Counted from the first letter of the stretch, positions 32,361 through 57,516 are shown. The stretch: DNA of 64,000 nucleotides from Alphaproteobacteria bacterium (GCA_965243135.1 OZ251539.1:2848001-2912000), one strand, 5' to 3'. Numbers and translations: made by a program. The notes: a model not told the origin generated them from the letters alone.

Positions 32361-32702
32361 CAGGCCGGCGCGCCTCTCCGTCGCCGCCAGCTGCCGTTCC
32401 ACGAAGTCCGGGGAGTTGCCTCCGCCGAAGCTAAGCCGCGCGACGGCGCGCCGACCAGTCCCGCTTGCCGTGCACGGCGAGGCCCCGGAACGGCTCCTCG
32501 CTTCCCAGCTCCTGCAGCGTGTCCACCAGCAAGTTCTTGCCGAACCGGCGCGGACGCGACAGGAAATAGTACTGACCCCCTCTCGACGAGGCGGCGCGCA
32601 TGGTCCGTCTTGTCGACGTAGCAGCAGCCCAGCTCCCGGATTTTCCGGAGGGATGTCAAGCCGGTCGGAAGCAAGCGTCTCGTCAGAGGGTAGGCCGCAA
32701 TG
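32361..32702 (-). pseudogene. AAA-ATPase/PD-(D/E)XK gene copy A0, eroded 5' fragment
   Basis: LPTGLTSLRKIRELGC..VDKT..SRPRRFGK with several short deletions. Confidence 0.85.
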
Positions 32703-32891
32703 CCCGTCAAGGAAGGGGCGGAGGCCGCCGGCCCGGAGTTCCCGCGCCGACGCGTCCCGTCGGGCGGTCGGCGCGCAAGGCGGCGACCCGGCGGAAACAA
32801 CGGCGGTCCCAGACGAAGGGCATGGCGACCTGCGGCGCGGTCCGCCGACGCCTTTCGCGGAGGCACCGCCTGCGCGGGACGGCTCCCGGCT

Positions 32892-34457
32892 TCAGACGGT
32901 CTCGAACTCGAACCCGACGATGTTGCGCTCCTCCCGGCCGAACTCGATGCCGATCAGGTGAACCGGCACGCCCGGACGCCGGTACTTGTCCGCGTAGCCG
33001 CGCGCCCGAATCTGCGCCAGCGCCCGGCCTTCCGGCTTCCCGTCCGCGACCTTGAACTCGAACAGGTAGACGTTGCCGCCGTACAGGACCGTCAGGTCCG
33101 AGCGGCCGCGCGCCGTGCTCTCCTCGGCGCGGACGTCCATCCCCGCCGCCACGAAGTGCGAGTAGAACACGCTCGCGTAGTGCGCCTCGTAGCCCGCCAT
33201 CCCCGTGTTCGCGTACCACTCGTTCGGAATGCTCGCCAGAAACGCCCGGAACCGCCGCTCGAGGCCCGCGAAGTCGTTCGTCCGCATCAGGCGGCGCAGC
33301 TCCCGGCTCTCCGCCGCGACCGTGATATCCGGCGCCATCGCCTTCAGCAGGAGCGCGTTCAGGCTGCGCTTCACCTCCCGGTTCGGGTAGTCCAGCCGGA
33401 AGAGACGAACGCCCTCGTCCTGCTCTTCGCCGACGATGGTCAGGTAGCCGGTCTGGAACAAAAGCGTCTCGACGGGTATGCGGTCGATATCGATGGCCGA
33501 CAGCAGATCGTCGTCCGCGACCAGGTCCTCCAGGGCCGGCGGCGCGAACCGGCGCCGGGACAGAAGGTCGGCGAGGAAGGTCGGCGTGCCGCTCAGGAAC
33601 CAGTGGTTGCCGAACTCGTGCGTTTCGAAGAGAAGGAGGATGTCGAACGGGTTGTAGACCTTCTCCGCGCCGCGCCAGTTGTAGCCGTTGTACCAGCGCC
33701 GGACTTCGTTCCGGTCCAGGCCCTCGAGTTCCGGAGCGAAGACCGCGTCCAGTTCCGCGTCCGTGTAGCCGCAGATGGCGCCGAACCGCGGATCGAGGGT
33801 GATGTCGCGCAGGTTGTTCAGGCCCGAGAACAGGCCCGCCTGCGAGAACTTGCTCACGCCGGTAAGGAAGGCGAACCGGATATGCGCGTCGCAGTCCTTG
33901 ACGACGCTGTAGAAGCCGCGCAGGAAGTCGCGGTTGGCCAGCGCCCGTTCCCGGTCGCCGAGCGCGTCCAGGATCGGCTTGTCGTACTCGTCCACCAGCA
34001 CGACCACGCGCCGCCCGGACCGCTCGTGCAGTTCGGAGATCAGATGGTGAAGGCGGTCGGAGGCGTCCGGGTAGCCGCATCGGACGCCGGCGCGCTTTTC
34101 GGCGGCGTCGAGCTGCATCATCGCGTTCCTGTGCAGCCGGTCAGGGTCGCCGAGATTGCCGGAACCGAAACTGATCCGCACGACCGGATGGCGCGCCGAC
34201 CAGTCCCACTTGCCGTGCACGGCGAGGCCCCGGAACAGCTCTTCGCTTCCCTCGAATAACTCCTGCAGCGTGTCCACCAGCAAGCTCTTGCCGAACCGGC
34301 GCGGACGCGACAGGAAATAGTACTGACCCCCTTCGACGAGGCGGCGCACATGGTCCGTCTTGTCGACGTAGTAGCAGCCCAGCTCCCGGATTTTGCGGAG
34401 GGAGGTCAAGCCGGTCGGAAGCATGCGTCTCGTCATCAGAAGAGGGTAGGCCGCCAT
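32892..34457 (-). CDS. AAA-ATPase-like + PD-(D/E)XK nuclease protein, copy A1 (intact, 521 aa)
   Basis: YVDKT, RPRRFGKS Walker A, LVDEYDKP Walker B, TGVSKF, WYNGY, YNP, QTGYLTI, YPNxEV; nuclease E..GRSD..FEFK..QI..Y (Pfam AAA-ATPase_like + PDDEXK_9 architecture, from recall). Confidence 0.93.
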   Translation of the reverse strand: MAAYPLLMTRRMLPTGLTSLRKIRELGCYYVDKTDHVRRLVEGGQYYFLSRPRRFGKSLLVDTLQELFEGSEELFRGLAVHGKWDWSARHPVVRISFGSGNLGDPDRLHRNAMMQLDAAEKRAGVRCGYPDASDRLHHLISELHERSGRRVVVLVDEYDKPILDALGDRERALANRDFLRGFYSVVKDCDAHIRFAFLTGVSKFSQAGLFSGLNNLRDITLDPRFGAICGYTDAELDAVFAPELEGLDRNEVRRWYNGYNWRGAEKVYNPFDILLLFETHEFGNHWFLSGTPTFLADLLSRRRFAPPALEDLVADDDLLSAIDIDRIPVETLLFQTGYLTIVGEEQDEGVRLFRLDYPNREVKRSLNALLLKAMAPDITVAAESRELRRLMRTNDFAGLERRFRAFLASIPNEWYANTGMAGYEAHYASVFYSHFVAAGMDVRAEESTARGRSDLTVLYGGNVYLFEFKVADGKPEGRALAQIRARGYADKYRRPGVPVHLIGIEFGREERNIVGFEFETV

Positions 34458-34737
34458 GCCGGAACCGTCAAGGAGAGCGTCATTAACGCGTCAGTATGTC
34501 CGGTCCATGTACCAAATGTCTGTGTCCACCTTGCCGCCGGCCTCGGGCGTGTGGTGCCGGTGTGACCGCTCCGACACCCGAACTGACGGCAACCCTAACC
34601 CGGCGCGCGTCCCTTTCCCGCGAATATCCGTGAATTTACGGCGGGTTGCGGCGGACGGCACATCCCTTTTTTCGGGGCGTCGGAGAGAGTTGCGTTCGGG
34701 GAACTTTTCCGCGATACGCCGAACTTGCGCAGCGCTC

Positions 34738-35450
34738 GTAGCGTTCGCTACCCGGGTGATGGTCCGCATTGAGAACCGTCTTTCAGTCCCGCCGCAGGGG
34801 CTTCGGCATCCTTGACCGGCAGCGCGTTTTTCACGTCGAGCTTGCCGCGGCCCTGCGGTTTGCCGACCCGGACCCAGTTGGCTGCGCGGTAGTCAAGTGC
34901 CCGCGAATCGGGGGCTTTCGCAGAAGGTCTCAAGCAGTGCGGGACGCAAGGCGTAACGAAGGTTCCAGTCGTCGGGCAAACATCGTTTGCGCGAAGGGAT
35001 GCAAGATGTTTGATTCTGACCCGGGGCAGTAACCTTGCGTCGTTGACGACGAAAGGTGCACTGGCGGCGCACCGATGAACTTGTCCCGTGGCGCAATCTT
35101 CCACGCGGCGGGCGCGGCCAGCGGTTCGCCCTCTGCGGAGCGGACGAAGTGCTGCGCGCCGGGCATGGGCGTAAAGCCGAGGTAGCGGGAAGGCGGCCCG
35201 ACTCTCGCTGGCGTTGCGGACGGGTGTGCAGCGGACGGACCTGACGTTCGGGAGTTGGGAACAAGGGCGGTTCGGGAGACTGCGGAACGGCAAACGCGGG
35301 TGGACCGGCGCTGCGACAGCCGCAGAGGCCGTCGCGTTCCAGCAGAAACGCGGGTGCCTTTCAGGCCGCCGTTGGGCTTGCGCCAGTCGAGACGTTCGCG
35401 CGCGCGACAGGTGGGTTCCGTTGCGCGAGCCGGTATGAGCAGTCACGATA
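34738..35450 (-). mobile_element. IS66 right end with eroded DUF4338 gene (inverted copy of 21160-21988)
   Basis: GTAGCGTTCGCTACCCGGGTGATGGTC at 34738 matches the reverse complement of 21961-21988; YRAANWVRVGK.QGRGKLD, PALLETFCE. Confidence 0.8.
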
Positions 35451-35884
35451 ATCGGCAGTTTCAGGTGCAAAATAATCAAGGATGCCGCGCTGGGAGGCGT
35501 TTCCGTTTCCTCTCGCGCCTGAGAGTGACGGGGCCGGGAAACGCCATTTTCTTTCAACGCAGCCCCGCAGCGCCATGGCGCGGCCCTGAAGGCAACCGGT
35601 GAACTCGTGGCTGCTGTCAAGAGCCTTTGATCGGGTTCTCCAAATGTCTCATGCCCGTGCACACCCGCCTACGAAGGCTGCGGTTGCGTGGTTGAACGCC
35701 GCCGCTACCGCGTGACCGGAATCGCCCTATGTTATCAACGGATTGATCGTCGCGTTCTCAGCCCCGCTCCTGGCGCGGTCTTCGACGAACAAAAATGGCT
35801 CGCTCGCGCTTCGACCACGAGATTCAGCGCCTCTGGGAAGGGCATTCCGTTGCCAGTTGGCTCAACGTATTCGGTTCTTTCAAG

Positions 35885-36652
35885 GTGTCTAGCCGCAAAA
35901 GATACTCCCCGCTCTTGTGCAGACTACGCCCGAGCTCGGCGTCGCTTCCAGCCGTTGAGGAAAGCGATCTCTTCCGCGATTTTCTGCCTCTGACGCTTCT
36001 CGACGGTCTGCACGAAGCTGGCGGCCTCCAGAAGACTGTCGCTGGTTCCCGTACAGGCGAATCCGCGGCCGAGCAACTCCACATGAAGTTCGCCGCGTTA
36101 ATGCGCGTTGACGTCGGTGATCTCCAGCTCGCCGCGCGCGCTCGGCGCGATTTCGGACGCGACGACCTCGTTGTCGTAGAAATAAAGGCCCGTAACCGCC
36201 CACTGCGACTGGGGGCGGGCGGGCTTCTCGGCGACCGCGCGGCCGGACGCGTCGAGCTCGACCACGCCGTAGCGCTCCCGGAACCCCGTAGCCGAAAACC
36301 GTCGCCCCCTTGCGCCGGGAAGCCGCGTTTCGCAATTTCTCGGTCAGGCCGTGCCCGTAGAATATGTTGTCCCCGAGGGCCAGGGCGCAGGAATCGTCGG
36401 AAGTCCCTGCCGATGAGGAAGGCCTGCGCCAGCCCTTCGGGGCGCGGCTGCACGGCATGGCGAAGCGCGAGGCCCCACTGGCTGCCGTCGCCGAGAAGCC
36501 GCTCGAAGGCCGCGGCGTGCTGCGGCGCGCAAGAATGTCCCGAATTCCCGCCAGCGTGCTCAGCGGATAGCATCGGCTTGTCGTAGACCGGCAGGAGCTG
36601 CTTGCTTACCGCGCTCGTCAGCAGGCGCGTTCCTTCCCGCCGATGCCCTTCA
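35885..36652 (-). pseudogene. rfbA: Second, eroded copy of glucose-1-phosphate thymidylyltransferase
   Basis: Colinear with 30523-31413 but with many short deletions. Confidence 0.92.
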
Positions 36653-37330
36653 TCGCGGCGCTTCTCCGGGGAACGCGCCGCCCGCCGCCGGCCTGCGGTG
36701 CCCCTTGGCGTAGCGCTCGAGCGCTTCCTGCCGCAGGCCGCCGAACGCGGCCGGGATCCTGGCGTTGTCGAGTGCGCTGTACCGGGGGCGCAGGGCGCGG
36801 GCAGGGCGCTCGTCGCTCGCGCAGGGCGTCACGACGGCTCCGGCGAGGCGGACGATTTCGCGGGCGACCAGGTCGCCGCGCCGTCGTTGACCGCGTGATA
36901 AGGGACGCAGCCGCTCGCGAGAATCCGCAGAACGACGCGCGCCGCGTCCGCGGTGACGGTCGGCGACATGGTCTGGTCGTCGACCACCCGCAGCGCTCTC
37001 TTCCCCCTCCCGGCTATCGTTTCGACGAAATTCCCCCCCCCCCCCTTGCCGCTCGCTCCCGCCGTCCCGAACAGGGACGCCACGCGAAGGATGACGATGT
37101 TCTCGCAGTCCGGCCAGAGTTTCCCCCATCGCCCTGGAGGCGCCGTAGACGTTGACCGGCGCGAACGGATCCCGGTTCGAGGCCGGTGCGCCGGCCTCGC
37201 AGTCGTCGAGCGAGGTGAACCCCTCGGCGGTCCGTTCGGGGATTTCCGGAGGCATGAGGAAGACTCCGCGCGCCGTGAGGTTTTCCGTAAGGGCCGAGGG
37301 CGAACGGCGCGGCCGTCCTTCCCCGGCGGT
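36650..37330 (-). pseudogene. rfbD: dTDP-4-dehydrorhamnose reductase pseudogene
   Basis: [57 protein letters not shown]; C13 run at 37033-37045. Confidence 0.85.
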
Positions 37331-37631
37331 TCGCGCGCCCCGACGCCGACCGGTAGATTCCTGCGAGCGGCGGCGGCGTCTTGCCCGCGCCGTTCGCGCT
37401 GGCCAGCCCGGCGCGGAAGACTGTTCTCGAGCGAGCGGCTGTCCGCGCCGCAAACGGCCACGGTCGCGGCGTCGAGCCGCAGTTCGGCGCGCGCGACCCG
37501 CCAGGCGCGGTGCATGGCCGGCGTCGCCGCCCGGCTCCAGGAAGCGGCAGTGGCGGCCGCCGCGAGCGCGCGGTCGGTCGGCGCTTTTCGCGGAGGCGCC
37601 GCCTGCGTCCGAACGGCAACGGCTCCCGGCC

Positions 37632-39197
37632 TTAGACGGTCTCGAACTCGAACCCGACGATGTTGCGCTCCTCCCGGCCGAACTCGATCCCGATCAGGTG
37701 GATCGGCACGCCCGGACTCCGGTACTTGTCCGCGTAGCCGCGCTCCCGTATCTGCGCCAGCGCCCGGCCTTCCGGCTTCCCGTCCGCGACCTTGAACTCG
37801 AACAGGTAGACGCCGCCGCCGTGCAGGACCGCAAGGTCCGAGCGTCCGCGCGCCGTGCTCTCCTCGGCGCGGACGTCCATCCCCGCCGCCACGAAGTGCG
37901 AGTAGAACACGCTCGCGTAGTGCGCCTCGTAGCCTGCCATGCCCGTGTTCGCGTACCACTCGTTCGGGATGCTCGCCAGGAACGCCCGGAACAGCGCCTC
38001 GAGGCCCGCGAAGTCGTTCGTGCGCATCAGGCGGCGCAGTTTCCGGCTTCCCGCTGCGACCGTGACGTCCGGCGCCATCGCCTCCAGCAGGAGCGCGTTC
38101 AGGCTGCGCTTCACCTCATGGTTCGGGTAGTCCAGCCGGTAAAGAAGCGCGTCGTCGTCCAGTTCCTCGTCGGCGATGGTCAGGTAGCCGGTCTGGAACA
38201 GAAGCGCCTCGACGGGGATGCGGTCGACGTCGATCGCCGACAGCAACGCGTCGTCCGCGATCATGCCCTCCAGGTCCGGCGCCGCGACCTGGCGCCGCGA
38301 CAGAAGGTCGGCGAGAAAGGTCGGCGTGCCGGTCCGGAACCAGTGCGCCTCGAACCGGCGGCGCCGGAAAAGCAGCAGAATATCGTGCGGGTTGTAGACC
38401 CTCTCCGGTCCGAGCCAGTTGTAGCCGTTGTACCAGCGGCGGATCTTGTCCCGGTCCAGGCCCTCGAGTTCCGGGGCGAAGACCGCGTCCAGTTCCGCGT
38501 CCGTGTAGCCGCAGATGGCCGAGAACTCCGGCTCCAGCGTGACGTCGATCAGGTTGTTCAGGCCCGAGAACAGGCCCGCCTGCGAGAACTTGCTCACCCC
38601 CGTCAGGAAAACGAAACGGAGATGCCTGTCGTTGTCCTTGATCATCGCGTAGAAGCCGCGCAGGAAATCGCGGTTGGCCAGCGCCAGTTCCCGGTCGCCG
38701 AGCGCGTCCAGAATCGGCTTGTCGTATTCGTCGACCAGCACGACCGCCTGCTGCCCGGTGCGCTCGTGCAGGGCCTCGATCAATTCCCCGAAACGGTTCG
38801 ACGCCTCGACAGCGCCCGGTTCGAGGCCGGCGCACCTCTCCGCCGCCGCCAGCTGCCGTTCCACGCTTCTCCGAACGAAGTCCGGGGAGTCGAAATTGCC
38901 GCCGCCAAAGCTGATCCGCACGACAGGATGGCGCGCCGACCAGTCCCACCTGCCGTGTACGGCGAGATCACGAAACAGTTCCTCGCTTCCCTCGAACAGT
39001 TCCTGCAGCGTGTCCACCAGCAGGGTCTTGCCGAACCGGCGCGGACGCGACAGGAAATAGTAATCGCCCTCTTCGACGAGGCGGCGCGCATGGTCCGTCT
39101 TGTCGACGTAGTAGCAGTCCCTCGTCCGGATTTTCCGGAGGGAGGTCAAGCCGGTCGGAAGCATGCGTCTCGTCATCCGGAGAGGATAGGCCGCCAT
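37632..39197 (-). CDS. AAA-ATPase + PD-(D/E)XK nuclease, copy A2 (intact, 521 aa)
   Basis: All motifs as A1; start MAAYPL at 39197 by alignment with A1/A5. Confidence 0.93.
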   Translation of the reverse strand: MAAYPLRMTRRMLPTGLTSLRKIRTRDCYYVDKTDHARRLVEEGDYYFLSRPRRFGKTLLVDTLQELFEGSEELFRDLAVHGRWDWSARHPVVRISFGGGNFDSPDFVRRSVERQLAAAERCAGLEPGAVEASNRFGELIEALHERTGQQAVVLVDEYDKPILDALGDRELALANRDFLRGFYAMIKDNDRHLRFVFLTGVSKFSQAGLFSGLNNLIDVTLEPEFSAICGYTDAELDAVFAPELEGLDRDKIRRWYNGYNWLGPERVYNPHDILLLFRRRRFEAHWFRTGTPTFLADLLSRRQVAAPDLEGMIADDALLSAIDVDRIPVEALLFQTGYLTIADEELDDDALLYRLDYPNHEVKRSLNALLLEAMAPDVTVAAGSRKLRRLMRTNDFAGLEALFRAFLASIPNEWYANTGMAGYEAHYASVFYSHFVAAGMDVRAEESTARGRSDLAVLHGGGVYLFEFKVADGKPEGRALAQIRERGYADKYRSPGVPIHLIGIEFGREERNIVGFEFETV

Positions 39198-41061: not shown

Positions 41062-43350
41062 TCAGGCGGGCTCGCAGCCGACGACGTTGCGCTCCTCGCG
41101 GCTGAACTCCACCAGGTGGACCGAACGCCCGAAGCGGCGGTACTTGTCCGCGTAGCCCTTCTCCCGCAGCTGCGCGAGCGCGGTCCCCTCCCGCCCGCGC
41201 TCCACCACCTTGAACTCGAACAGGTAGACGCGCCCGCCGGCGCGGATCGCCATGTCGGCGCGCCCCCGGCTGCCGCTGTCCTCCGCCACCGGCTCTAGGC
41301 CCTCCATCAGGAAGCAGCTGTGGATGACGCTCGCGTAGTGGGCCTCGTACTTCGCGACCGGGCTGTTCATGTACCACTGGTGCGGGGCGAAGACGCCGCG
41401 GAACAGGGTTTCGAGACGCTCGAAGTCGTTCGCCGCCAGCACCCAGCCGCAGGTTCTCCGTCTCCTCGCGGGCCTCGTCCGGGAGCAGTTCTTCCAGCAG
41501 GGCCTCGCCCAGGCTCTGGCGCACCTCGAGGTTCGGGTAGTCCAGCCGGTAGCGCCCGTCCTCCTCGCCGGCGATGGGTAGAGTCGAGGACTGGCGCGTT
41601 AGCTTTAGGGTCCGGGTTCCGTCGCTTTCGCTCCGGGCCTCAGTCCGGCTCCCGTGGCCACGTTTCCAGTCCCCGCTCTCCGAACCGGACGTGCGGATTT
41701 CCCGCGCCTCCAGCCCTCGCCCACGGATGGATTGTCAGCGTTCCCAAAAACGGCCGGTTTTCCGGACCCGGGAGTTGCACCGTCTCCCATATTTTCCGCC
41801 TGTTCTCGCTTTCCAACCCGTCGCCGAACCTGTTTACGCCTCGACGACCCCGGCCTCTCGACCGGGTTCCTTCGCTTGTGACGCTTCCGGGATCTCTGGC
41901 ATGTAGTCGGTTGTTAGGCATAGCCAGATCCCTTCTCCCTTGCGGCGCCCTTCCTCGCGCCCCTTTCCTCCGCCGGCGTTACCCGGCTTCTCCGGTACTA
42001 CGGGCCTCTCCGCCACCCGCCGGCCTGCCCCTCGCGGGGTTCCGGTTGACTCGTGCGCGTCACCGACAGGGCTTCCCGTGTTGCTGCTTCCTTCATCTTC
42101 CATGCGTGCCGACACCCCGGCGGAAACGGTCGGTGCTCTTGTCGTTCTCTTCCCGACCGTCGGCGGCTTTCCCCTAGGAGGGTCAGCTCCCGCATTGACC
42201 GTTTCGAGGCCTGGTTCACTGCTCGTTTCGGCCCGCATGTTCGCTGAGCGGCCTTCGCCGCCCTTTCCCAGAGTGCTTCAGCCTACCCTCCGTAAACCGC
42301 CCTGGCCGCTACCAACCGGAACGACAGTTGTTGGGTGGGATTCGCACCCACGAAAGCGCCTTTCCACGGCGCACTGAGGTAGCCGGTCTGGAACAGAAGG
42401 GCCTGGACCGACATCCTGTCCACGTCGAAGGCCGAGAGCAGGCTCTCGCCATGCCGTCCAGGCGAGGAGTGGGCAGGTCGCGGCGCGCCAGCGTCTCCAC
42501 CAGGAAGGTCGGCGTGCCGCTCTCGAACCAGTACGGGCGGAACTCGCGCCGCCGAAACAGCAGCAGGAGGCCGAACGGATTGTAGACCCTCTCCGGCCCG
42601 CGCCAGTTGTAGCCGTTGTACCAGCGACGGACCTCGTCCCGGTCCAGGCCATCGAGTTCCGGGGCGAAGACCGCGTCCAGTTCCGCGTCCGTGCAGCCGC
42701 AGATATCCGAGAATTCCGGCTCCAGCGTGACGCAGGTTGTTCAGGCCCAGAACAGGCCCGCCTTCGAGAATTTGCTCACTCCCGTCAGGAAAACGAAACG
42801 GAGATGCCTGTCGCAGGCCACCCCGTACAGGCTGCGCAGGAAGTCCCGGTTGGCCCGCGCCAGCTCCCGGTCGCCGAGCGCGTCCAGAATCGGCTTGTCG
42901 TACTCGTCCACCAGAACCACCGCCCGCTGCCCGGTGCGTTCGTGCAGGTCCGCGATCAGTTCCCGGAAGCGGACCGAAACTCTGGCGCCGCCCGGCGCCG
43001 GCCCGCCTCTCCGCCGCCTTCAGTTGCGATTCCGTTTCTTCCCGAACTCCGTCCGGGTCGCCGAAATCGCCCCCGCCGAAATCCAGCCGCACGACAGGAT
43101 GACGCATCGACCAGTCCCACCTGCCGTGCACGGCGAGGCCCCGGAACAGCTCCTCGTTTCCCTCGAACAACTCCTGCAGCGTGTCCACCAGCAGGGTCTT
43201 GCCGAACCGGCGCGGACGCGACAGGAAATAGTACTTGCCCCATGAGGCGGCGCGCATGCTCCGTCTTGTCGACGTAGTAGCAGTCCATCCCCCGGATCTC
43301 CCGGAGGGAGGAAAAGCCGAGCATGCGTTTCGTCAGAGGGTAGGCCGCCG
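41062..43350 (-). pseudogene. AAA-ATPase/PD-(D/E)XK copy A3, eroded, interrupted by a group II intron; divergent nuclease end
   Basis: 5' exon ends ..QTGYL-A at 42375; 3' exon resumes CC-IAGEEDGRYRLDYPN at 41577; C-terminus AEDSGSRGRADMAIRAGGRVYLFEFKVVE. Confidence 0.88.
41578..42374 (-). ncRNA. Group II intron remnant lacking an intact RT ORF (797 nt)
   Basis: 5' GTGCG; DIII-like CCCGTAGTACCGGAGAAGCCGGGTAACGCCGGCGGAGGAAAGGG; DV-like GGGAAATCCGCACGTCCGGTTCG; 3' end CTCGACTCTAC; precise removal restores the host Thr codon. Confidence 0.88.
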
Positions 43351-45863: not shown

Positions 45864-47429
45864 TCAGGCGGTCTCGAACTCGAACCCGACGATGTTGCGC
45901 TCCTCCCGGCCGAACTCGATCCCGATCAGGTGGACCGGCACGCCCGGTCGCCGGTACTTGTCCGCGTAGCCGCGCTCCCGAATCTGCGCCAGCGCCCGGC
46001 CTTCCGGCTTCCCGTCCGCGACCTTGAACTCGAACAGGTAGACGTTGCCGCCGTACAGGACCGCGAGGTCCGAGCGGCCGCGCGCCGTGCTCTCCTCGGC
46101 GCGGACGTCCATCCCCGCCGCCACGAAGTGCGAGTAGAACACGCTCGCGTAGTGCGCCTCGTAGCCTGCCATGCCCGTGTTCGCGTACCACTCGTTCGGA
46201 ATGCTCGCCAGGAACGCCCGGAACAGATTCTCGAGGCCCGCGAAGTCGTTCGCCCGCATCAGGCGGCGCAACTCCCGGCTCTCCGCCGCGACCGTGACCT
46301 CCGGCGCCATCGCCTTCAGCAGGAGCGCGTTCAGGCTGCGTTTCACCTCCTGGTTCGGGTAGTCCAGCCGGTAGAGGCGCGTGTCTTCGTCCCGCTCCTC
46401 GTCGGCGATGGTCAGGTAGCCGGTCTGGAACAACAGCGCCTCGACGGGAATGCGATCGACGTCAATGGCCGACAGCAGGTCGTCGTCCGCGACCAGATCC
46501 TCCAGGGCCGGCGGCGCGAACCGGCGCCGCGACAGAAGGTCGGCGAGGAAGGTCGGCGTGCCGGTCCGGAACCAGTGCGCCTCGAACTGGCGGCGCCGGA
46601 AAAGCAGCAGGACATCGTACGGGTTGTAGAGTTTCTCCGCGCCTCGCCAGTTGTAGCCGTTGTACCAGCGGCGGACCTCGTCCCGGTCCAGGCCGTCGAG
46701 TTCCGGGGCGAAGACCGCGTCCAGCTCCGCGTCCGTGTAGCCGCAGATGGACGAGAACTCCGGCTCCAGCGTGATGTCGATCAGGTTGTTCAGGCCCGAA
46801 AACAGGCCCGCATGCGAGAACTTGCTCACCCCCGTCAGGAAAACGAAACGGAGATGCCTGTCGCAGTCCTTGATCGCCCCGTACAGGCCGCGCAGGAAGT
46901 CGCGATTGGCCCGCGCCAGTTCCCGGTCGCCGAGCGCGTCCAGGATCGGCTTGTCGTACTCGTCCACCAGCACGACCGCCTGTTGTCCGGCGCGCTCGTG
47001 CAGGGCCTCGATCAATTCCCCGAAACGGTTCGACGCCTCGACGGATCCCGGTTCGAGGCCGGCGCGCCTCTCCGTCGCCGCCAGCTGCCGTTCCACGGTT
47101 ATCCGAACCCCGTCCGGGACGACGAAATTGCCCCTGCCGAAGCTGAGCCGCACGACCGGATGGCGCGCCGACCAGTCCCACCCGTCGTGCACGGCGAGGC
47201 CCCGGAACAACTCCTCGCTTCCCTCGAACAGCTCCTGCAGCGTGTCCACCAGCAAGCTCTTGCCGAACCGGCGCGGACGAGACAGAAAATAGTAATCGCC
47301 CCCTTCGACGAGCCGGCGCACATGCTCTGTCTTGTCGACGTAGTAGCAATCCCTCGTCCGGATTTTCCGGAGGGAGGTCAAGCCGGTCGGAAGCATGCGT
47401 CTCGTCATCTGAAGAGGGTAAGCCGCCAT
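45864..47429 (-). CDS. AAA-ATPase + PD-(D/E)XK nuclease, copy A5 (intact, 521 aa)
   Basis: All motifs as A1. Confidence 0.93.
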   Translation of the reverse strand: MAAYPLQMTRRMLPTGLTSLRKIRTRDCYYVDKTEHVRRLVEGGDYYFLSRPRRFGKSLLVDTLQELFEGSEELFRGLAVHDGWDWSARHPVVRLSFGRGNFVVPDGVRITVERQLAATERRAGLEPGSVEASNRFGELIEALHERAGQQAVVLVDEYDKPILDALGDRELARANRDFLRGLYGAIKDCDRHLRFVFLTGVSKFSHAGLFSGLNNLIDITLEPEFSSICGYTDAELDAVFAPELDGLDRDEVRRWYNGYNWRGAEKLYNPYDVLLLFRRRQFEAHWFRTGTPTFLADLLSRRRFAPPALEDLVADDDLLSAIDVDRIPVEALLFQTGYLTIADEERDEDTRLYRLDYPNQEVKRSLNALLLKAMAPEVTVAAESRELRRLMRANDFAGLENLFRAFLASIPNEWYANTGMAGYEAHYASVFYSHFVAAGMDVRAEESTARGRSDLAVLYGGNVYLFEFKVADGKPEGRALAQIRERGYADKYRRPGVPVHLIGIEFGREERNIVGFEFETA

Positions 47430-47797: not shown

Positions 47798-49358
47798 TCA
47801 GGCGGTCTCGAACTCGAACCCGACGATGTTGCGCTCCTCCCGGCCGAACTCCACCCCGATCAGGTGGACCGGCACGCCCGGACGCCGGTACTTGTCCGCG
47901 TAGCCGCGCTCCCGAATCTGCGCCAGCGCCCGACCTTGCGGCTTCCCGTCCGCGACCTTGAACTCGAACAGATAGACGTTGCCGTTGTACAGGAGCGTCA
48001 GGTCCGAGCGGCCGCGCGCCGTGCTCTCCTCCGCACGGACGTCCATGCCCGCCGCCACGAAGTGCGAATAGAACACGCTCGCATAGTGAGCCTCGTAGCC
48101 CGCTATGCCCGTGTTCGCGTACCACTCGTTCGGAATGCTCGCCAGGAACGCCCGGAACAGATTCTCGAGGCCCGCGAAGTCGTTCGCCCGCATCAGGCGG
48201 CGCAACTCCCGGCTCCCCGCCGCGACCGCGACGTCCGGCGCCATCGCCTTCAGCAGAAGCGCGTTCAGGCTGCGCTTCACCTCCTGGTTCGGGTAGTCCA
48301 GCCGGTAGAGGTGCGTGTCCTCGTCCCGCTCCTCGTCGACGATGGTCAGGTAGCCGGTCTGGAACAGCAACGCCTCGACGGGAATGCTGTCGACGTCGAT
48401 GACCGACAGCAGGTCGTCGCCCGCGGCCAGGTCCTCCAGGGCCGGCGGCGCGAACCGGCGCCGCGACAGAAGGTCGGCGAGGAAGGTCGGCGTGCCGGTC
48501 CGGAACCAGTGCTCCTCGAACTCGCGGCGCCGGAAAAGCAGAAGGACATCGTACGGGTTGTAGAGTTTCTCCGCGCCTCGCCAGTTGTAGCCGTTGTACC
48601 AGCGGCGGACCTTGTCCCGGTCCAGGCCCTCGAGTTCCGGGGCGAAGACCGCGTCCAGTTCCGCGTCCGTGTAGCCGCAGATGGACGAGAACTCCGGCTC
48701 CAGCGTGACGTCGATCAGGTTGTTCAGGCCCGAGAACAGGCCCGCATGCGAGAACTTGCTCACCCCCGTCAGGAAAACGAAACGGAGATGCCTGTCGTTG
48801 TCCTTGATCATCGCGTAGAAGCCGCGCAGGAAGTCGCGGTTGGCAAGCGCCAGTTCCCGGTCGCCGAGCGCGTCCAGAATCGGCTTGTCGTATTCGTCCA
48901 CCAGCACGACCACGCGTCGCCCGGCGCGCTCGTGCAGGGCCTCGATCAATTCCCCGAAACGGTTCGACGCCTCGGCAGCGCCCGGTTCGAGGCCGCCGCG
49001 CCTCTCCGCCGCCGCCAGCTGCCGTTCCACGCTTCTCCGAACGAAGTCCGGGGAGTCGAAATTGCCGCCGCCGAAGCTGATCCGCACGACGGCGCGCCGA
49101 CCAGCCCCACCCGTCGTGCACCGCGAGATCACGAAACAGCTCCTCGCTTCCCTCGAACAGTTCCTGCAGCGTGTCCACCAGCAGGGTCTTGCCGAACCGG
49201 CGCGGACGCGACAGGAAATAGTACTGGCCCCCTTCGACGAGGCGGCGCACATGGTCCGTCTTGTCGACGTAGTAGCAGTCCAACTCCCGGATTTTCCGGA
49301 GAGAGGTCAAGCCGGTCGGAAGCATGCGTCTCGTCATCTGGAGAGGATAGGCCGCCAT
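47798..49358 (-). pseudogene. Copy A6, full length except one 5-nt deletion near 49090
   Basis: 1561 nt versus 1566 nt for intact copies; HP codons of SARHPVVR lost. Confidence 0.9.
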
Positions 49359-49636: not shown

Positions 49637-51159
49637 TTAGACGGTCTCGAACTCGAACCCGACGATGTTGCGCTCCTCCCGGCTGAACTCCACCCCGATC
49701 AGGTGGACCGGCACGCCCGGACGCCGGTACTTGTCCGCGTAGCCGCGCTCCCGAATCTGCGCCAGAGCCCGGCCTTCCGGCTTCCCGTCCGCGACCTTGA
49801 ATTCGAACAGGTAGACGCCGCCGCCGTGCAGCACCGCAAGGTCCGAACGGCCGCGCGCCGTGCTCTCCTCCGCGCGGACGTCCATCCCCGCCGCCGCGAA
49901 GTGCGAGCACGCTCGCGTAGTGGACCTCGTAGCCCGCCATGCCCGTGTTCGCGTACCACTCGTTGCTCGCCAGGAACGCCCGGAACCGCCGCTCGAGGCC
50001 CGCGAAGTCGTTCGTCCGCATCAGGCGCCGCAACTCCCGGCTCTCCGTCGCGACCGCGACGTCCGGCGCCATCGCCTCCAGCAGGAGCGCGTTCAGGCTG
50101 CGCTTCACCTCATGGTTCGGGTAGTCCAGCCGGTAGAGGGGCGCGTCCTCGTCCCGCTTCTCGTCGGCGACGGTCAGGTAGCCGGTCTGGAACAGCAGCG
50201 CCTCGACGGGAATGCGGTCGACGGCCGACAGCAGGTCGTCGTCCGCGATCATGCCCTCCAGGGCCGGCGCCGCGACCCGGCGCCGCGCCAGAAGGTCGAC
50301 GAGAAAGGTCGGCGTGCCGCTCTGGAACCAGTACGGGCGGAATCTGCGCTTGTCGAACAGCAGCAGGATGTCGTGCGGATTGTAGACCCTCTCCGGTCCG
50401 AGCCAGTTGTAGCCGTTGTAGCAGCGGCGGACCTTGTCCCGGTCCAGGCCGTCGAGTTCCGGGGCGAAGACCGCGTCCAGCTCCGCGTCGGTGTAGCCGC
50501 ATACGGCGCCGTAGCGCTCGTCCAGCGTGATGTCGTTCAGGTTGTTCAGGCCCGAGAACAGGCCCGCCTGCGAGAACTTGCTCACCCCCGTCAGAAAAAC
50601 GAAGCGGAGATGCTCGTCGCAATCCTTGATCGTTCCGTACAGGCTGCGCAAGAAGTCGCGGTTGGCCCGCGCCAGTTCCCGGTCGCCGAGCGCGTCCAGG
50701 ATCGGCTTGTCGTACTCGTCCACCAGAACGACCGCCCGCTGCCCGGTGCGCTCGTGCAGGGCCTCAATCAATTCCCCGAAACGGTTCGACGCCTCGACGG
50801 ATCCCGGTTCGAGGCCGGCGCGCCTCTCCGCCGCCGCCAGCTGCCTTTCCACGGTTATCCGAACCCCGTCCGGGACGACGAAATTGCCCCTGCCGAAGCT
50901 GAGCCGCACGACGGCGCGCCGACCAGTCCCACTCGCCGTGCACGGCGAGGCCCCGGAACAGTTCCTCGCTTCCCTCGAACAGCTTCTGCAGCGTGTCCAC
51001 CAGAAGAGTCTTGCCGAACCGCCGCGGACGCGACAGGAAATAGTACTTGCCCCTCTCGACGAGGCGGCGCGCATGGTCCGTCTTGTCGACGTAGTAGCAG
51101 TCCATCCCCCGGATCTCCCGGAGGGAGGAAAAGCCGATCGGAAGCATGCGTTTCGTCAT
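49637..51159 (-). pseudogene. Copy A7, frameshifted
   Basis: MTKRMLPIGFSSLREIRGMD start; short deletions near 50912, 50220, 49965, 49908. Confidence 0.9.
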
Positions 51160-51555: not shown

Positions 51556-52990
51556 TCAGACGGTCTCGAACCCGACGATGTTGCGCTCCTCCCGGCCGAA
51601 CTCGATCAGGTGGACCGGCACGCCCGGACGCCGGTACTTGTCTGCGTAGCCGCGCTCCCGAATCTGCGCCAGCGCCCGGCCTTGCGGCTTCCCGTCCGCG
51701 ACCTTGAACTCGAACAGGTAGACGCCGCCGCCGTACAGGACCGCAAGGTCCGAACGGCCGCGCGCCGTGCTCTCCTCGGCGCGGACGTCTATCCCCGCCG
51801 CCGCGAAGTGCGAGCACGCTCGCGTAGTGCGCCCCCGCCAAGCCCGTGTTCGCGTACCACTCGTTGCTCGCCAGGAACGCCCGGAACAGCCGCTCGAGGC
51901 CCGCGAAGTCGTTCGCCAGGCGGCGCAGCTCCCGGCTCTCCGCCGCGACCGCGACGTCCGGCGCAGCAGGGGCGCGTTCAGGCTGCGCTTCACGGTTCGG
52001 GTAGTCCAGCCGGTAGAGGGGCGCGTCCTCGTCCTGCTCTTCGCCGGCGACGGTCAGGTAGCCGGTCTGGAACGGCAACGCCTCGACGGAAATGCGGTCG
52101 ACGGCCGACAGCAGGTCGTCGTCCGCGAACATGCCCTCCAGGGCCGGCGCCGAGATCCGGCGCCGCGCCAGCGTCTCGACCATGAAGGTCGGCGTACCGC
52201 TCAGGAACCAGTAGTTGCCGAACCCGCGCTCGGCGAGCAGCAGCAGGATGCCGAACGGATTGTAGAGCCTCTCCGGCCCGCGCCAGTTGTAGCCGTTGTA
52301 CCAGCGGCGGATTTTCTCCCGGTCCAGGCCATCGAGTTCTGGAGCGAAGACCGCGTCCAGCTCGTCGTCCATGTAACCGCAAATGTCCGAGAACTCCGGC
52401 GCCAGCGTGATGTCGCGCAGGTTGTTCAAGCCAGAGAACAGGCCCGCCAACTTGCTCACCCCCGTCAGGAAAACGAAACGGAGATGCCTGTCGTTGTCCT
52501 TGATCATTGCGTAGAAGCCGCGCAGGCAGTTGCGGTTCGCCAGTTCCCGGTCGCCGAGCGCGAACCGGCTTGTCGTACTCGTCCACCAGCACGACCGCCC
52601 GCTGCCCGGTGCGCTCGTGCAGGACCAATTCCCCGAAACGGTTCGACGCCTCGACGGGTTCGAGGCCGGCGCGCCTCTCCGTCGCCGCCAGCTGCCGTTC
52701 CACGAGGTCCGGGGAGTTGCCGCCGCCGAAGCTGATCCGCACGACGGCGCGCTGACCAGTCCCACCCGCCGTGCACGGCGAGGCCCCGGAACAACTCCTC
52801 GCTTCCCAGCTCCTGCAGCGTGTCCGCCAGCAAGCTCTTGCCGAACCGGCGCGGACGCGACAGGAAATAGTACTTGCCCCACGAGGCGGCGCGCATGCTC
52901 CGTCTTGTCGACGTAGTAGCAGTCCATCCCCCGGATCTCCCGGAGGGAGGAAAAGCCGAGCATGCGTTTCGTCAGAGAGTAGGCCGCCGC
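51556..52990 (-). pseudogene. Copy A8, heavily eroded
   Basis: Colinear, many short deletions; 5' end and IS4 junction nearly identical to those of A3. Confidence 0.9.
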
Positions 52991-55155: not shown

Positions 55156-55239
55156 GGCAAGCCGAAGGTCAAGGCCGACGACGACGGCAAGCCGCGGGCG
55201 ACGTCTCCGGAACCTCGCAGCGCGGCTCCCGGGAGCCAC

Positions 55240-55950
55240 AACTTCTCCCGGTCCAGGCCCTCGAGTTCCGGGGCGAAGACCGCGTCCAGCTCCGCGTCAG
55301 TGTAGCCGCAGATGGACGAGAACTCCGGCTCCAGCGTGACGCAGGTTGTTCAGGCCCGAGAACAGGCCCGCATGCGAGAACTTGCTCACGCCGGTAAGGA
55401 AGGCGAACATGCGCGTCGCAGTCCTTGACGACGCTGTAGAAGCCGCGCAGGAAGTCGCGGTTGGCCAGCGCCCGTTCCCGGTCGCCGAGCGCGGACCGGC
55501 TTGTCGTACTCGTCCACCAGCACGACCGCACGCCGCCCGGCGCACTCGTGCAGTTCGGAGATGGTGAAGGCGGTCGGAGGCGTCCGGGTAGCCGCATCGG
55601 ACGCCGGCGCGCTTTTCGGCGGCGTCGAGCTGCATCATCGCGTTCCTGTGCAGCCGGTCGGGATCGTCGAGCTTGCCGGAACCGAAGCTGATCCGCACGA
55701 CGGTGCGCCGACCAGTCCCACCCGCCGTGCACGGCGAGGCCCCGGAACAGCCCCTCGCTCCCCTCGAACAGCTCCTGCAGCGTGTCCACCAGCAGGCTCT
55801 TGCCGAACCGGCGCAGACGCGACAGGAAATAGTACTTACCCCCCTTCGACGAGGCGGCGCGCATGGTCCGTCTTGTCGACGCAGTCCATCCCCCGGATCT
55901 CCCGGAGGGAGGAAAAGCCGAGCATGCGTTTCGCCGCGAGAGTAGGCCGC
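55240..55950 (-). pseudogene. Copy A9, eroded 5' half
   Basis: Carries the A1-type block DPDRLHRNAMMQLDAAEKRAGVRCGYPDASDR with the A7/A8-type N-terminus. Confidence 0.88.
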
Positions 55951-56079
55951 CCCGCCCGTCAAGGAGGAGGCGGGTCTGCAGGCCGAACGCCGCGCCGGAG
56001 TTCCCACGCCTCCCCTGGCGGCGCGTCCCGTCGTGCCGCCTGCCGAAACGTCCGAACGGGACGTCGGCGGCTCCCGGCT

Positions 56080-57516
56080 TCAGACGGTCTCGAACTCGAA
56101 CCCGACGATGTTGCGCTCCTCCCGGCCGAACTCGATGCCGATCAGGTGGACCGGCACGCCCGGACTCCGGTACTTGTCCGCGTAGCCGCGTTCCCGAATC
56201 TGCGCCAGCGCCCGGCCTTCCGGCTTCCCGTCCGCGACCTTGAACTCGAACAGGTAGACGCTGCCGCCGTACAGGACCGCAAGGTCCGAACGGCCGCGCG
56301 CCGTGCTCTCCTCCGCGCGGACGTCCATCCCCGCCGCCACGAAGTGCGAGTAGAGCACGCTCGCATAGTGCGCCTCGTAGCCCGCCATGCCCGTGTTCGC
56401 GTACCACTCGTTCGGAATGCTCGCCAGGAACGCCCGGAACAGCCGCTCGAGGCCCGCGAAGTCGTTCGCCCGCATCAAGCGGCGCAACTCCCGGCTCCCC
56501 GCCGCGACCGCGACGTCCGGCGCCATTGCCTCCAGCAGAAGCGCGTTCAGGCTGCGCTTCACCTCATGGTTCGGGTAGTCCAGCCGGTAAAGAAGCGCGT
56601 CGTCGTCCAGTTCCTTGTCGGCGATGGTCAGGTAGCCGGTCTGAAACAAAAGCGCCTCGACGGGAATGCGGTCGATGTCGATGGCCGACAGCAGCGCGTC
56701 GTCCGCGATCATGCCCTCCAGGGCCGGCGCCGAGACCCGGCGCCGCGACAGAAGGTCGGCGAGGAAGGTCGGCGTGCCGGTCCGGAACCAGTGCGCCTCG
56801 AACTGGCGGCGCCGGAAAAGCAGCAGGATGTCGTGCGGGTTGTAGACCCTCTCCGATCCGAGCCAGTTGTAGCCGTTGTACCAGCGCCGGACCTTGTCCC
56901 GGTCCAGGCCATCGAGTTCCGGAGCGAAGACCGCGTCCAGCTCCGCATCCGTGTAGCCGCAGATGGCCGAGAACTCCGGCTCCAGCGTGACATCGATCAG
57001 GTTGTTCAGGCCCGAGAACAGGCCCGCCTGCGAGAACTTGCTCACCCCCGTCAGAAAAACGAAACGGAGCTGCCTGTCGCAGGCCTTGATCGCCCCGTAC
57101 AGGCTGCGCAGGAAGTCGCGGTTGGCCAGCGCCAGTTCCCGGTCGCCGAGCGCGTCCAGAATCGGCTTGTCGTATTCGTCGACCAGAACGACCGCCCGCT
57201 GCCCGGTGCGCTCGTGCAGCGCCTCGATCAATTCGTGGAAACGGACCGCCGCCCCGGCGGGGCCCGGTTCGAGGCCGGCGCGCCTCTCCGCCGTCGCCAG
57301 CTGCCTTTCCACGGTTCCCCGAACTCCGTCCGGGCCGTCGAAGCGGCCCACGCCGCTGAAATCCAGCCGCACGACCGGGTGGCGTGCCGACCAATCCCAC
57401 CTGCCGTGCACGGCGAGGCCCCGGAACAGCTCCTCGCTCCCCTCGAACAACTCCTGCAGCGTGTCCACCAGCAGGCTCTTGCCGAACCGGCGCGGACGCG
57501 ACAGGAAATAGTACAT
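56080..57516 (-). CDS. Copy A10, open but lacking the first ~40 residues
   Basis: Homology begins at YYFLSRPRRFGKS; in-frame ATG at 57516; remainder has no frameshift. Confidence 0.82.
   Translation of the reverse strand: MYYFLSRPRRFGKSLLVDTLQELFEGSEELFRGLAVHGRWDWSARHPVVRLDFSGVGRFDGPDGVRGTVERQLATAERRAGLEPGPAGAAVRFHELIEALHERTGQRAVVLVDEYDKPILDALGDRELALANRDFLRSLYGAIKACDRQLRFVFLTGVSKFSQAGLFSGLNNLIDVTLEPEFSAICGYTDAELDAVFAPELDGLDRDKVRRWYNGYNWLGSERVYNPHDILLLFRRRQFEAHWFRTGTPTFLADLLSRRRVSAPALEGMIADDALLSAIDIDRIPVEALLFQTGYLTIADKELDDDALLYRLDYPNHEVKRSLNALLLEAMAPDVAVAAGSRELRRLMRANDFAGLERLFRAFLASIPNEWYANTGMAGYEAHYASVLYSHFVAAGMDVRAEESTARGRSDLAVLYGGSVYLFEFKVADGKPEGRALAQIRERGYADKYRSPGVPVHLIGIEFGREERNIVGFEFETV

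Follow-up and report, generated by a model that had tools for sequence, protein, structure and literature searches.

Knizewski et al. (2007; PMC1913061) defined the DUF1703 protein family, which Steczkiewicz et al. (2012; PMC3424549) later catalogued. The available text of the defining paper describes a layout of two AAA+ domains, a helical region and a nuclease, four domains in all, with a non-canonical Walker A motif (RPRRFGKS), a Walker B motif (DEYD) and PD-(D/E)XK motifs I-IV corresponding to E, D, ExK and Q. The available parts of these two papers mention nine copies for Methanospirillum hungatei and gene duplication among Bacteroidetes, but nothing at the present scale. Siozios et al. 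(2019; PMC6387759) described 25 DUF1703 paralogs, with inter-paralog recombination, in Cardinium hertigii cCpun, and an expansion in a midge Rickettsia; as far as the available text extends, the Cardinium and Rickettsia proteins share with those analyzed here the same two Pfam domains, a length of ~520 aa, many diverged paralogs per genome and a reticulate, recombining evolution, and no function is assigned to them there either. No functional test of the DUF1703 family was found in the literature searched. In the archaeal-type ATPase families of PF01637, which are multicopy too, a nuclease-fold module likewise follows the ATPase at the C-terminus. In STAND anti-phage proteins an NTPase switch is coupled to an effector nuclease, a logic that the protein studied here would share, but Avs/STAND proteins have a C-terminal repeat sensor and an N-terminal effector, whereas our protein is 514 aa long, has no C-terminal repeat or sensor domain recognised by Pfam and has its nuclease at the C-terminus. 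The ATPases of RADAR (RdrA), PARIS and Old-tin are assigned to PF09820 in the available part of a review table (PMC10952713); the copies analyzed here, however, are without a deaminase or other partner gene, and the three intact ones of the window had no PADLOC matches.

The locus analyzed here lies in a 64,000-nt stretch (the window) of Alphaproteobacteria bacterium GCA_965243135.1 (OZ251539.1:2848001-2912000) and comprises 11 minus-strand copies of a 514-aa ATPase-nuclease gene at window positions 32340-57513. To count the copies, the window was searched by tblastn with the 521-aa ORF 32892-34457(-) and, as six-frame pieces, with a family HMM; the 12 resulting pieces all lie on the minus strand and represent 11 copies: three intact, one with one frameshift, one N-truncated and six eroded. 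The array is thus mostly dead (8/11 copies), and both the eleven co-oriented copies in ~25 kb and this same tally had already been proposed in a sequence-only reading of the DNA.

The three intact coding sequences, each of 514 aa, are c2 (32892..34436, followed by a stop; tblastn, Pfam and HMM), c3 (37632..39176, promoter 39183-39212) and c6 (45864..47408, promoter 47415-47444), labelled A1, A2 and A5, respectively, in the sequence-only reading. Their start codons were misplaced there: the true ATGs are at 34436, 39176 and 47408, seven codons further downstream, because the upstream ATG falls within the promoter spacer. Two other copies are full length and retain intact promoters, namely c7 (A6; 47801..49337, promoter 49344-49373), with one frameshift near HMM positions 82-98, and c8 (49640..51159, promoter 51166-51195), with two. 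Copy c9 (51565..52975), although broken into five pieces, extends over the full-length range (HMM 1-511) and has no recognisable promoter when three mismatches are allowed. The remaining minus-strand copies found with the HMM include an N-terminal remnant, c1 (32340..32686, HMM 1-125, three pieces with two frameshifts, also found by tblastn), the C-terminally truncated and eroded c5 (44159..45484, HMM 2-452, six pieces) and the eroded N-terminal half c10 (55209..55934, HMM 2-257). Copy c4 is a single gene in seven pieces, interrupted by a 797-nt insert and by further frameshifts; its 5' part (42375..43336, HMM 1-333) has several frameshifts and its 3' part (41071..41577, about HMM 334-511, placed by HMM and by reading across the junction) a further one. 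Lastly, c11 (A10; 56083..57513, Pfam and HMM) is one open piece (HMM 39-515) within the ORF 56080-57552; residues 1-38 and the family promoter are missing, and the copy adjoins a divergent secretin gene.

The array is flanked on the left by a nucleotidyl-transferase gene on the minus strand (30523..32199; PF00483, E 7e-73) and on the right by the plus-strand secretin-like gene (57581..59110; PF00263), after which comes a T2SSE ATPase (61849-63813). The proposal that the copies are joined by reused spacers was upheld for the four spacers from c5 to c9, each of which has two to four homologous pieces in the array, but not for the others, which hold unrelated dispersed repeats, sugar-nucleotide gene remnants and a group II intron. 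The remnants were recognised by domain matches on the minus strand of the spacer at 35824..37632, as a weak NTP_transferase fragment (35824-36573, E 1.5e-4) and an RmlD fragment (36829-37632, E 7e-11).

Both domains and both sets of motifs place the family in DUF1703 (PF09820 plus PF08011). In the four window copies tested, Pfam recognised PF09820 AAA-ATPase_like (E 1e-59 to 9e-46; 157-202 bits, gathering score 26.1) as well as PF08011 PDDEXK_9 (E of about 1e-18 to 1e-19; 67-70 bits, gathering score 25.5), in agreement with the AAA-ATPase and PD-(D/E)XK architecture read from the sequence, and the protein does not differ from DUF1703 as defined in the available text of Knizewski et al. (PMC1913061). 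In c2 the Walker A motif is SRPRRFGKS, the Walker B motif is VDEYDKP and the nuclease residues are E438, D447, E460-x-K462 and Q475 in 514-aa numbering. Across 95 intact copies of the genome the Walker A S-R-P-R-R-F-G-K and Walker B D-E-Y-D-K are invariant, as are E445, E467-F-K469 and Q482 (521-aa numbering); in 30 sequences from other phyla E438, D447, E460-F-K462 and Q475 are invariant and the Walker motifs invariant or nearly so. In the protein, an Orc1/Cdc6- or STAND-like AAA+ ATPase is joined through a helical middle part to a PD-(D/E)XK nuclease at the C-terminus. No recombinase or transposase domain and no C-terminal repeat domain were found in it with Pfam, nor any hypervariable sensor-like domain.

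No PDB chain had a sequence match at E <= 1. Structural comparisons used an AlphaFold model (pLDDT 72.9; an attempt at the middle domain reached pLDDT 41). The closest solved fold to the ATPase part is the archaeal-type PAB2304 (2qen; Z 8.0, 186 aligned, rmsd 5.0), and SSO1545 (2fna), likewise of PF01637, scored Z 6.8; both differ from our protein in Walker A variant and nuclease family. BrxC (9zdx; Z 7.7), ORC (7.5), MalT (8bob; 7.5) and Avs3 (8dgc; 7.3) have a similar ATPase fold, in a Z range that the search tool calls common, and the matches to Avs3, MalT, Apaf-1 and NLRs (Z 6-7.5) are no better than that to ORC/Cdc6. For the nuclease and preceding helices (residues 354-514), the best structural matches are the Wolbachia modules CidB ND1-ND2 (7esy_B; Z 11.2, rmsd 3.1, 143 aligned) and CinB (7esz_A; Z 10.3), at 10-13% sequence identity; unlike our protein, these cytoplasmic-incompatibility (CI) factors lack an AAA+ ATPase, carry their nuclease modules in tandem and are paired with a cognate antidote gene.

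Every family copy is organised as a self-contained cassette, with a predicted private sigma-70-type promoter ahead of the coding sequence. The promoter of c2 (34443..34472, minus strand) has a -35 box TTGACG, a 17-nt spacer and a -10 box TACCCT whose end is separated from the ATG by 6 nt, and no Shine-Dalgarno sequence is present upstream of c2. Genome-wide, 106 sites of this promoter were found, every one directly upstream of a family locus and 104 with the same 6-nt distance, and 79 of the 98 intact copies possess it. From promoter geometry alone, the family mRNA is predicted to be leaderless.

The window array is the largest cluster of a family with 168 loci in the 6.1-Mb genome (98 intact, 32 broken and 38 partial), which together amount to 222 kb, or 3.6% of the chromosome. 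Apart from 50 singletons, the loci are grouped into 34 multi-copy clusters, of which 26 have a uniform orientation. The earlier description of the copies as multicopy and co-oriented is supported; the genome-wide counts, like the 3/11 intact copies of the array, also bear out the birth-and-death evolution suggested earlier. In the available text of Siozios et al. (PMC6387759) the comparable figures are 25 paralogs with a mean identity of 39% in an insect endosymbiont, versus 168 loci with a median identity of 71% within one clade in an alphaproteobacterium from sponge-labelled metagenomes; that text also does not report a promoter/leaderless cassette, an intron homing site or phylum intermixing for Cardinium or Rickettsia. 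With ~170 copies, ~100 of them intact, the family of this sponge-associated bacterium is probably the largest such expansion yet seen. The locus is not an undescribed system, for which the sequence-only reading had named it the best candidate in the window, given that the family, its four-domain architecture, its expansions and recombination between paralogs are already in the published record, even in the portions available (PMC1913061, PMC6387759).

Almost all intact copies (95/97) form one clade with a support of 0.999, which points to a single in-situ expansion, and the copies taken from a genome of the same genus (10/10) and from one of the same order (7/7) each form a clade of their own. 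The idea of a locally amplifying locus fits c3, c6 and c7, which are mutual closest relatives, but not five of the eight window copies that could be placed, which are closest to loci 0.1-2 Mb away; in the tree, 52 of 132 tips descend from the common ancestor of these eight. All intact copies differ from one another: amino-acid identity reaches at most 97%, and nearest neighbors are mostly at 88-96%. Some pairs appear to exchange sequence, as judged by conversion-like identical tracts: 84 of 4461 pairs exceeded the 99.9th percentile of tract length in a site-heterogeneous simulation, where 0.1% was expected. Purifying selection acts on the intact copies: in 73 nearest pairs of intact copies the median dN/dS was 0.32 (range 0.19-0.76), with regional values from 0.18 (nuclease) to 0.57 and no segment above 1, by the Nei-Gojobori method, whose estimates are rough at 90% GC3 with ongoing gene conversion. 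Taken together, ~100 open copies, invariant catalytic residues and dN/dS near 0.3 show that selection acts on the enzyme activity of individual copies.

Relatives are widespread, being encoded by 521 of 540 candidate stretches among genome contigs. The best 80 of these 521, at 57-62% identity, come from MAGs whose labels name eight different phyla or orders; on the tree these labels are intermixed, with short branches. Five other MAGs have 7-35 family matches each, the family was also detected in Bacteroides and Methanosarcina control genomes, and relatives were found in 65 of 72,556 plasmid records, among whose hosts are the free-living Azotobacter, Sphaerotilus, Hydrogenophilus and Moraxella. 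No conserved partner gene was found, the largest neighbor cluster occurring at 7 of 80 foreign loci and consisting of unrelated enzymes. With regard to habitat, sponge metagenome-labelled runs contain 26-36% of the sampled words of the array, and one such run covers all 30 array bins at >= 97% identity.

Our preferred reading, to which we give a probability of roughly 0.45, is that the array is the largest cluster of a lineage-specific DUF1703 expansion of a stand-alone ATP-gated nuclease that takes part in genetic conflict and undergoes birth-and-death evolution. One founder gave rise to the ~170 loci of the alphaproteobacterial genome, as co-oriented tandem clusters and scattered singletons, with copies dying by frameshift, truncation and insertion. 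The protein would act alone as an ATP-gated DNA nuclease, its most likely role being in genetic conflict, by attack on incoming or non-self DNA, and a set of many slightly different copies, or simply a large number of them, may be an advantage where DNA and phages abound. Portability (an own promoter, a predicted leaderless start and no partner gene) would explain the trade between phyla and on plasmids. Among known and candidate system models, PADLOC-DB 2.0.0, which includes RADAR, matched none of the three intact copies at E <= 0.1, and NCBIfam gave no matches either. As there is no dN/dS > 1 and no hypervariable sensor-like or repeat domain, a diversified recognition repertoire is not demonstrated.

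The main rival, possible though on balance doubtful, is that the gene is a selfish, gene-sized element that spreads within genomes and, on plasmids, between them, and persists by propagation without benefit to the cell, perhaps by way of breaks made by its own nuclease and then duplicative repair. The extreme copy number with 70 of 168 loci dead, the independent in-situ expansions in at least three genomes and the tens of matches in each of five unrelated MAGs are what such an element would produce, as are relatives of different phyla intermixed on the tree, the family's presence on plasmids, and a promoter for every copy with no conserved partner gene. In addition, dispersed pairs of 91-96% DNA identity lose homology close to the cassette, at ~40-54 bp before the ATG and, for the most part, 4-150 bp beyond the stop; such sharp ends, however, also match the limits of functional constraint and possible conversion tracts, leaving defined element ends unproven. 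Copies of active insertion sequences are usually near-identical, whereas here even the closest intact pair differs, no terminal inverted repeats are common to the three intact window copies and the protein has no recombinase or transposase domain. A dN/dS of 0.32 and invariant catalytic residues in 95 copies further argue that each copy was selected after duplication. Judged by terminal inverted repeats, protein domains and identity between copies, the gene does not qualify as an insertion sequence or transposon.

Much less probable is that the proteins are host-directed nuclease effectors of an animal symbiont, comparable to the CI nucleases of Wolbachia, as the match of residues 354-514 to CidB and CinB, the sponge-labelled runs containing this genome's DNA, and the expansions in Cardinium and a midge Rickettsia, where the available text of PMC6387759 gives secretion as predicted, might suggest. 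Yet the N-terminus (MTRRMLPTG...) is the conserved first ATPase strand without a hydrophobic leader, the family occurs on plasmids of free-living bacteria and in the Bacteroides and Methanosarcina controls, and an Orc/STAND-like ATPase-nuclease fusion is not a feature of CI toxins in that text (PMC6387759). Nor is the array an assembly artefact. That strain variants of one gene were concatenated by the assembler has a negligible probability, even if no contig spans the array in four runs (unitigs of 80-900 nt), so that the order of the copies over long distances depends on the single-contig assembly, and joints skipping one or two units are present in the runs compared. The copies differ by ~8-40% in DNA, far beyond strain differences, and have different spacers, an intron and different lesions; clusters of like organisation number 34 in this single-contig genome and occur in other complete genomes; and spacer-specific unitigs with 0-4 differences were found in all four runs, from four studies, with all 30 bins covered.

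The insert of c4 (41578..42374, minus strand) is an ORF-less group II intron in sense orientation, matching Rfam RF02003 at 66 bits (gathering score 49); in the same Rfam comparison of the insert, domains V-VI gave no match at the gathering threshold. Its sense strand starts with GTGCG and ends with CTAC, in keeping with the group II rule (5' GUGYG, 3' AY). The intron interrupts the conserved FQTGYLT|I motif inside its Thr codon, and excision of the intron in silico restores the frame at the c4 junction. Contigs without the intron, with short flanking sides of 21-22 nt, were seen in three of four runs.

Twelve pieces of the DUF1703 family, every one on the minus strand, were located at 32340-57513 of the window by tblastn with the open reading frame 32892-34457(-) and by application of the family HMM to six-frame pieces. 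Because an insert divides one copy into two of these pieces (41071-41602 and 42373-43336), the 12 pieces represent 11 copies, and the tally of the sequence-only reading was confirmed by both searches. The intact copies number three (32892-34436, 37632-39176 and 45864-47408); a fourth copy (47801-49337) carries one frameshift, a fifth (56083-57513; HMM 39-515) lacks its N-terminus but remains open, and the other six, also within 32340-57513, are eroded or partial. The two-domain architecture proposed at the same time held as well, with AAA-ATPase_like (PF09820) and PDDEXK_9 (PF08011) being found by Pfam in all four copies tested. The start codon, in turn, had been placed seven codons too far upstream, at an ATG that sits in the promoter spacer, the conserved start of the family being the ATG of M-T/A-K/R-R-M-L-P. 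No unitig spanning the array was obtained from the four short-read runs examined, and some joints were seen to skip roughly one or two units (~1.8, 2.2, 3.8 and 3.9 kb), one such joint recurring in two studies; the joints have sides of only 20-30 nt, may stem from paralogs and were not counted as copy-number variation. In practice, an origin of the array by misassembly can be dismissed.

Fragments of NTP-transferase and RmlD genes lie between the first two intact copies (35824-37632, minus strand), and an intact nucleotidyl-transferase gene (30523-32199) adjoins these sugar-nucleotide fragments; the array appears to have grown inside a sugar-nucleotide gene cluster, breaking it up. Eight of the 10 spacer ORFs had no Pfam family at E <= 0.01. 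Other dispersed families with 20-70 genomic hits each occupy the spacers at 34700-35700, 39200-40450 and 52980-55200; fewer than half of these hits are near a family locus, the ORFs that were tried have no Pfam match, and these sequences are repeats or dead mobile elements.

The array had been proposed to be amplifying locally, and a purely local amplification was not borne out. In the genome that contains the window (a single contig of 6.10 Mb, 65% GC, with the window at 2,848,001-2,912,000), the family HMM identified 168 loci, comprising 98 intact, 32 full-length but broken and 38 partial copies, which together make up 222 kb or 3.6% of the chromosome; a phmmer census counted 100 uninterrupted full-length frames. 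Fifty loci stand singly and the rest are grouped in 34 clusters, of which the window array is the largest (12 pieces); in 26 of the clusters all members point the same way. Co-orientation with the GC-skew replichores (113 of 168 loci) was unremarkable. Among related genomes the Pfam domain was present in 5 of 31, and this genome had 198 first-look candidates, compared with 23, 9 (split matches), 1 and 0 matches in its congeners and 9 in one genome of the same order. At 1910800-1914084 and 1920928-1924212, two blocks 10 kb apart are built identically, each from one broken copy, one partial copy and the group II intron described below; they point to a recent segmental duplication of several genes within the 1.9-Mb cluster region.

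Each unit carries its own promoter. The upstream consensus of the copies in this genome is CTTGACGG-N-TCCGGC-NN-GGCGGC-N-TAYYCT followed by 6 nt and the ATG, with a -35 element (TTGACG), a 17-nt spacer and a -10 element (TAYYCT), and without a Shine-Dalgarno sequence. With up to three substitutions allowed, the pattern occurs at five sites in the window, before the three intact, the one-frameshift and the two-frameshift copies, and at none in shuffled sequence. Across the genome it occurs at 106 sites, all 106 directly upstream of a family locus and 104 with exactly 6 nt between the -10 box and the ATG; 79 of the 98 intact copies carry it. From this geometry a leaderless mRNA is predicted, in which transcription would begin at or beside the A of the ATG. 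When the 40 nt upstream of homologues were read by eye, a -10-like hexamer was found 6-8 nt before the ATG in gammaproteobacterial and Binatia MAG homologues (foreign loci L001, L002, L003, L008, L012, L013, L018, L031, L034, L036, L043, L054 and L072), and SD-like leaders were found in other lineages, e.g. the same-order genome G030 and locus L033; the leaderless arrangement may thus recur in the family outside this genome.

Over all pairs of copies in the genome, homology typically ceases 36-48 bp before the ATG and a few bases past the stop codon, and even pairs at dispersed loci with 91-96% DNA identity have little more flank in common. Flank classes of ~150 nt exist, which partly track the two subfamilies. 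No neighbour gene is common to the 80 foreign family loci and, together with the restriction of homology to the unit, this means that the family gene stands alone. The 11.5-kb neighbourhood of a singleton matched four same-genus genomes over only the first 0.9 kb of flank (73-78%), a conservation so poor that insertion boundaries are undefinable there. Sequences resembling CCTCCGCGAAAG follow the stop codon in 50 of 100 copies, yet the stem found by RNAalifold is only 3 bp, and no claim is made for a 3' element. A motif like the end of an insertion sequence, GGACCGGACATATC...TGTTA, which also occurs as its reverse complement, closely precedes the family promoter in 8 of 97 intact copies (window ~34500-34560 and seven other intact copies).

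No two of the intact copies are identical (median pairwise identity 71%, maximum 97%), and the nearest relative of a copy is usually at a distant locus. In a protein tree of 97 copies from this genome and 96 foreign sequences, from which three aberrant rows of this genome were excluded, 95 of its copies formed one clade (support 0.999), and the 10 copies of the same-genus genome G004 and the seven of G030 each formed a clade of their own (10/10 and 7/7), from which it follows that the family expanded separately in each genome. Two tandem copies at 1565059-1568752, which are 41% identical to the intact window copy at 32892-34436, fall outside the main clade and represent a second, unexpanded lineage in the same genome. 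Only three of the eight placeable window copies cluster together, the other five being closest to loci at 0.93, 1.46, 2.07, 2.77 and 4.06 Mb.

The intact copies are under purifying selection, with a median nearest-pair dN/dS of 0.32 (n=73). The ratio is 0.18 in the nuclease and 0.53-0.57 between Walker A and Walker B and at residues 276-325, and it exceeded 1 in no region of the protein in the regional analysis of these copies. Walker A, Walker B and the nuclease E, ExK and Q residues are invariant across 95 copies, and at the synonymous divergence observed (0.03-0.3) an unconstrained 1.5-kb frame would be expected to have closed. Unusually long identical tracts were found in 84 of 4461 pairs versus the 0.1% expected from a site-heterogeneous simulation that ignores tree structure within identity classes; an iid version of the test, which flagged 429 of 4465 pairs, was discarded as blind to regional conservation. 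The long tracts are consistent with gene conversion, and exchange between DUF1703 copies is reported for Cardinium in PMC6387759.

The insert that splits the window copy is an ORF-less group II intron of ~0.8 kb (Rfam RF02003; 41578-42374, minus strand). In five full-length family loci it sits in sense orientation at an identical position, interrupting the conserved FQTGYLT|I motif within the Thr codon, the other four introns being at genome positions 1150702-1151571, 1934092-1934960, 3618447-3619309 and 4119187-4120049, and the same 3' junction was found at three more loci (1914060, 1924188 and 2665261). As 1.9-kb versions of the intron sit at unrelated sites, the ~0.8-kb form seems to use the multicopy DUF1703 family as its homing site. 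Two of the carriers are otherwise unbroken (1149713-1152098 and 3617911-3620295).

DUF1703 has been on record since 2007 as an ATPase-nuclease family with no assigned function, described in PMC1913061 as a fusion of an Orc/Cdc6-like AAA+ module with a PD-(D/E)XK nuclease. Our structural comparison of the predicted model with 48,161 chains (VIA-align) agrees with that assignment: residues 354-514 matched CidB ND1-ND2 (7esy_B, Z 11.2) and residues 368-511 matched CinB (7esz_A, Z 10.3), and the N-terminal ~265 residues matched PAB2304 (Z 8.0), BrxC (Z 7.7), ORC and MalT (both Z 7.5) and Avs3 (Z 7.3), although Z scores of 7-8 are common according to the tool's own warning. Foldseek against the PDB returned no match at E <= 1e-3 and phmmer against PDB sequences none at E <= 1; the model of the middle domain (residues 200-430) had a pLDDT of 41 and was unusable. 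A whole-library phmmer search at E <= 1e-3 returned 17,299 clusters at 50% identity, no PADLOC model matches the family, and the openly accessible literature yielded no functional study of the family and no report of it from sponge symbionts.

Relatives are encoded by 521 of 540 candidate stretches among contigs from one genome per species. The best 80 of the 521 are 57-62% identical and carry the labels Latescibacterota (29), Vicinamibacterales/Acidobacteriota (21), gammaproteobacterial (17), Binatia (5), Gemmatimonadota (4), Thermodesulfobacteriota/Deltaproteobacteria (2), Spirochaetia (1) and Opitutales (1). These phylum labels are intermixed on the tree, with inter-phylum branch lengths of a few percent, and recent horizontal transfer is therefore required. 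Five genomes of relatives have 7-35 family matches each, and 65 plasmid records hold a family gene, the best being a plasmid of Azotobacter chroococcum (57.9%). Matches in 32 of 50,697 phage records, all unannotated 'Bacteriophage sp.' contigs at no more than 37% identity, were too weak for a claim of phage carriage. The relatives of the T2SSE gene in the window place its host among the alphaproteobacteria. With respect to habitat, runs labelled as sponge metagenomes contain 26-36% of the sampled words of the array, and one such run covers all 30 array bins at at least 97% identity; there was no RNA run among the 22 runs listed. In one Vicinamibacterales MAG (L038), a gene for a 492-aa ankyrin-repeat protein (3059-4534, minus strand) adjoins a family copy.

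Taken together, the data show a predicted enzyme in which an ATP-binding switch is fused to a metal-dependent nuclease, with its putative activity preserved in ~100 independently promoted copies, and a gene that needs no partner and moves readily between unrelated bacteria. That ~100 open copies are each under purifying selection implies that the enzyme's activity is worth much to the cell or to the gene, and the trade of the same gene among unrelated phyla that apparently share a habitat, combined with this selection, makes the family a strong candidate for a conflict system. We propose, with moderate confidence, that it is a stand-alone ATP-gated nuclease in genetic conflict, i.e., defence against incoming DNA, evolving by birth and death. 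The main rival, a selfish gene that amplifies itself, explains just as well why the copies are so numerous, why some are dead and why the gene is promiscuous, but it is the poorer fit to the lack of near-identical copies, defined ends and a recombinase and to purifying selection having acted on every copy. An effector aimed at the host, like the Wolbachia cytoplasmic-incompatibility nucleases such as CidB and CinB, is a minor rival.

A more speculative extension of the conflict reading, which we consider unlikely, is that the ~100 intact copies serve as a germline-encoded repertoire for recognition, as a bacterial equivalent of the NLR clusters in plants. Every copy would be an ATP-gated nuclease with its own leaderless promoter, the more variable segments, located between the two Walker motifs and around the middle domain, would set target preference (dN/dS in these proposed recognition parts is 0.5-0.6 versus 0.18 in the nuclease), gene conversion would reshuffle them, and the same solution would have been horizontally acquired and expanded independently in many phyla sharing the sponge habitat. 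There is equal room for the alternative that the gene is a gene-sized selfish element of a new class, spreading with no recombinase. DUF1703 is already known, as are its architecture, expansions and recombination (PMC1913061 and PMC6387759); our analysis adds the scale, the private promoter and the leaderless start predicted from it, the mixing of phyla in what seems to be a single habitat and a group II intron that seems to home to a conserved site of the family. Taken alone, these add scale and anatomy to a described pattern and no new kind of system. For experiments on the proposed conflict nuclease, the window provides three intact copies with a defined promoter and fully conserved catalytic residues.

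Elsewhere in the window, tandem tyrosine-integrase genes (5990-7090 and 7094-8188), a Type ISP restriction-modification enzyme of 1591 aa (9555-14330, minus strand) and a TrwC relaxase (15100-19002) were identified, and the region 5990-19002 looks like an integrative mobilisable element with a defence gene. The GC content over the first 30 kb of the window swings from 43% to 75%.
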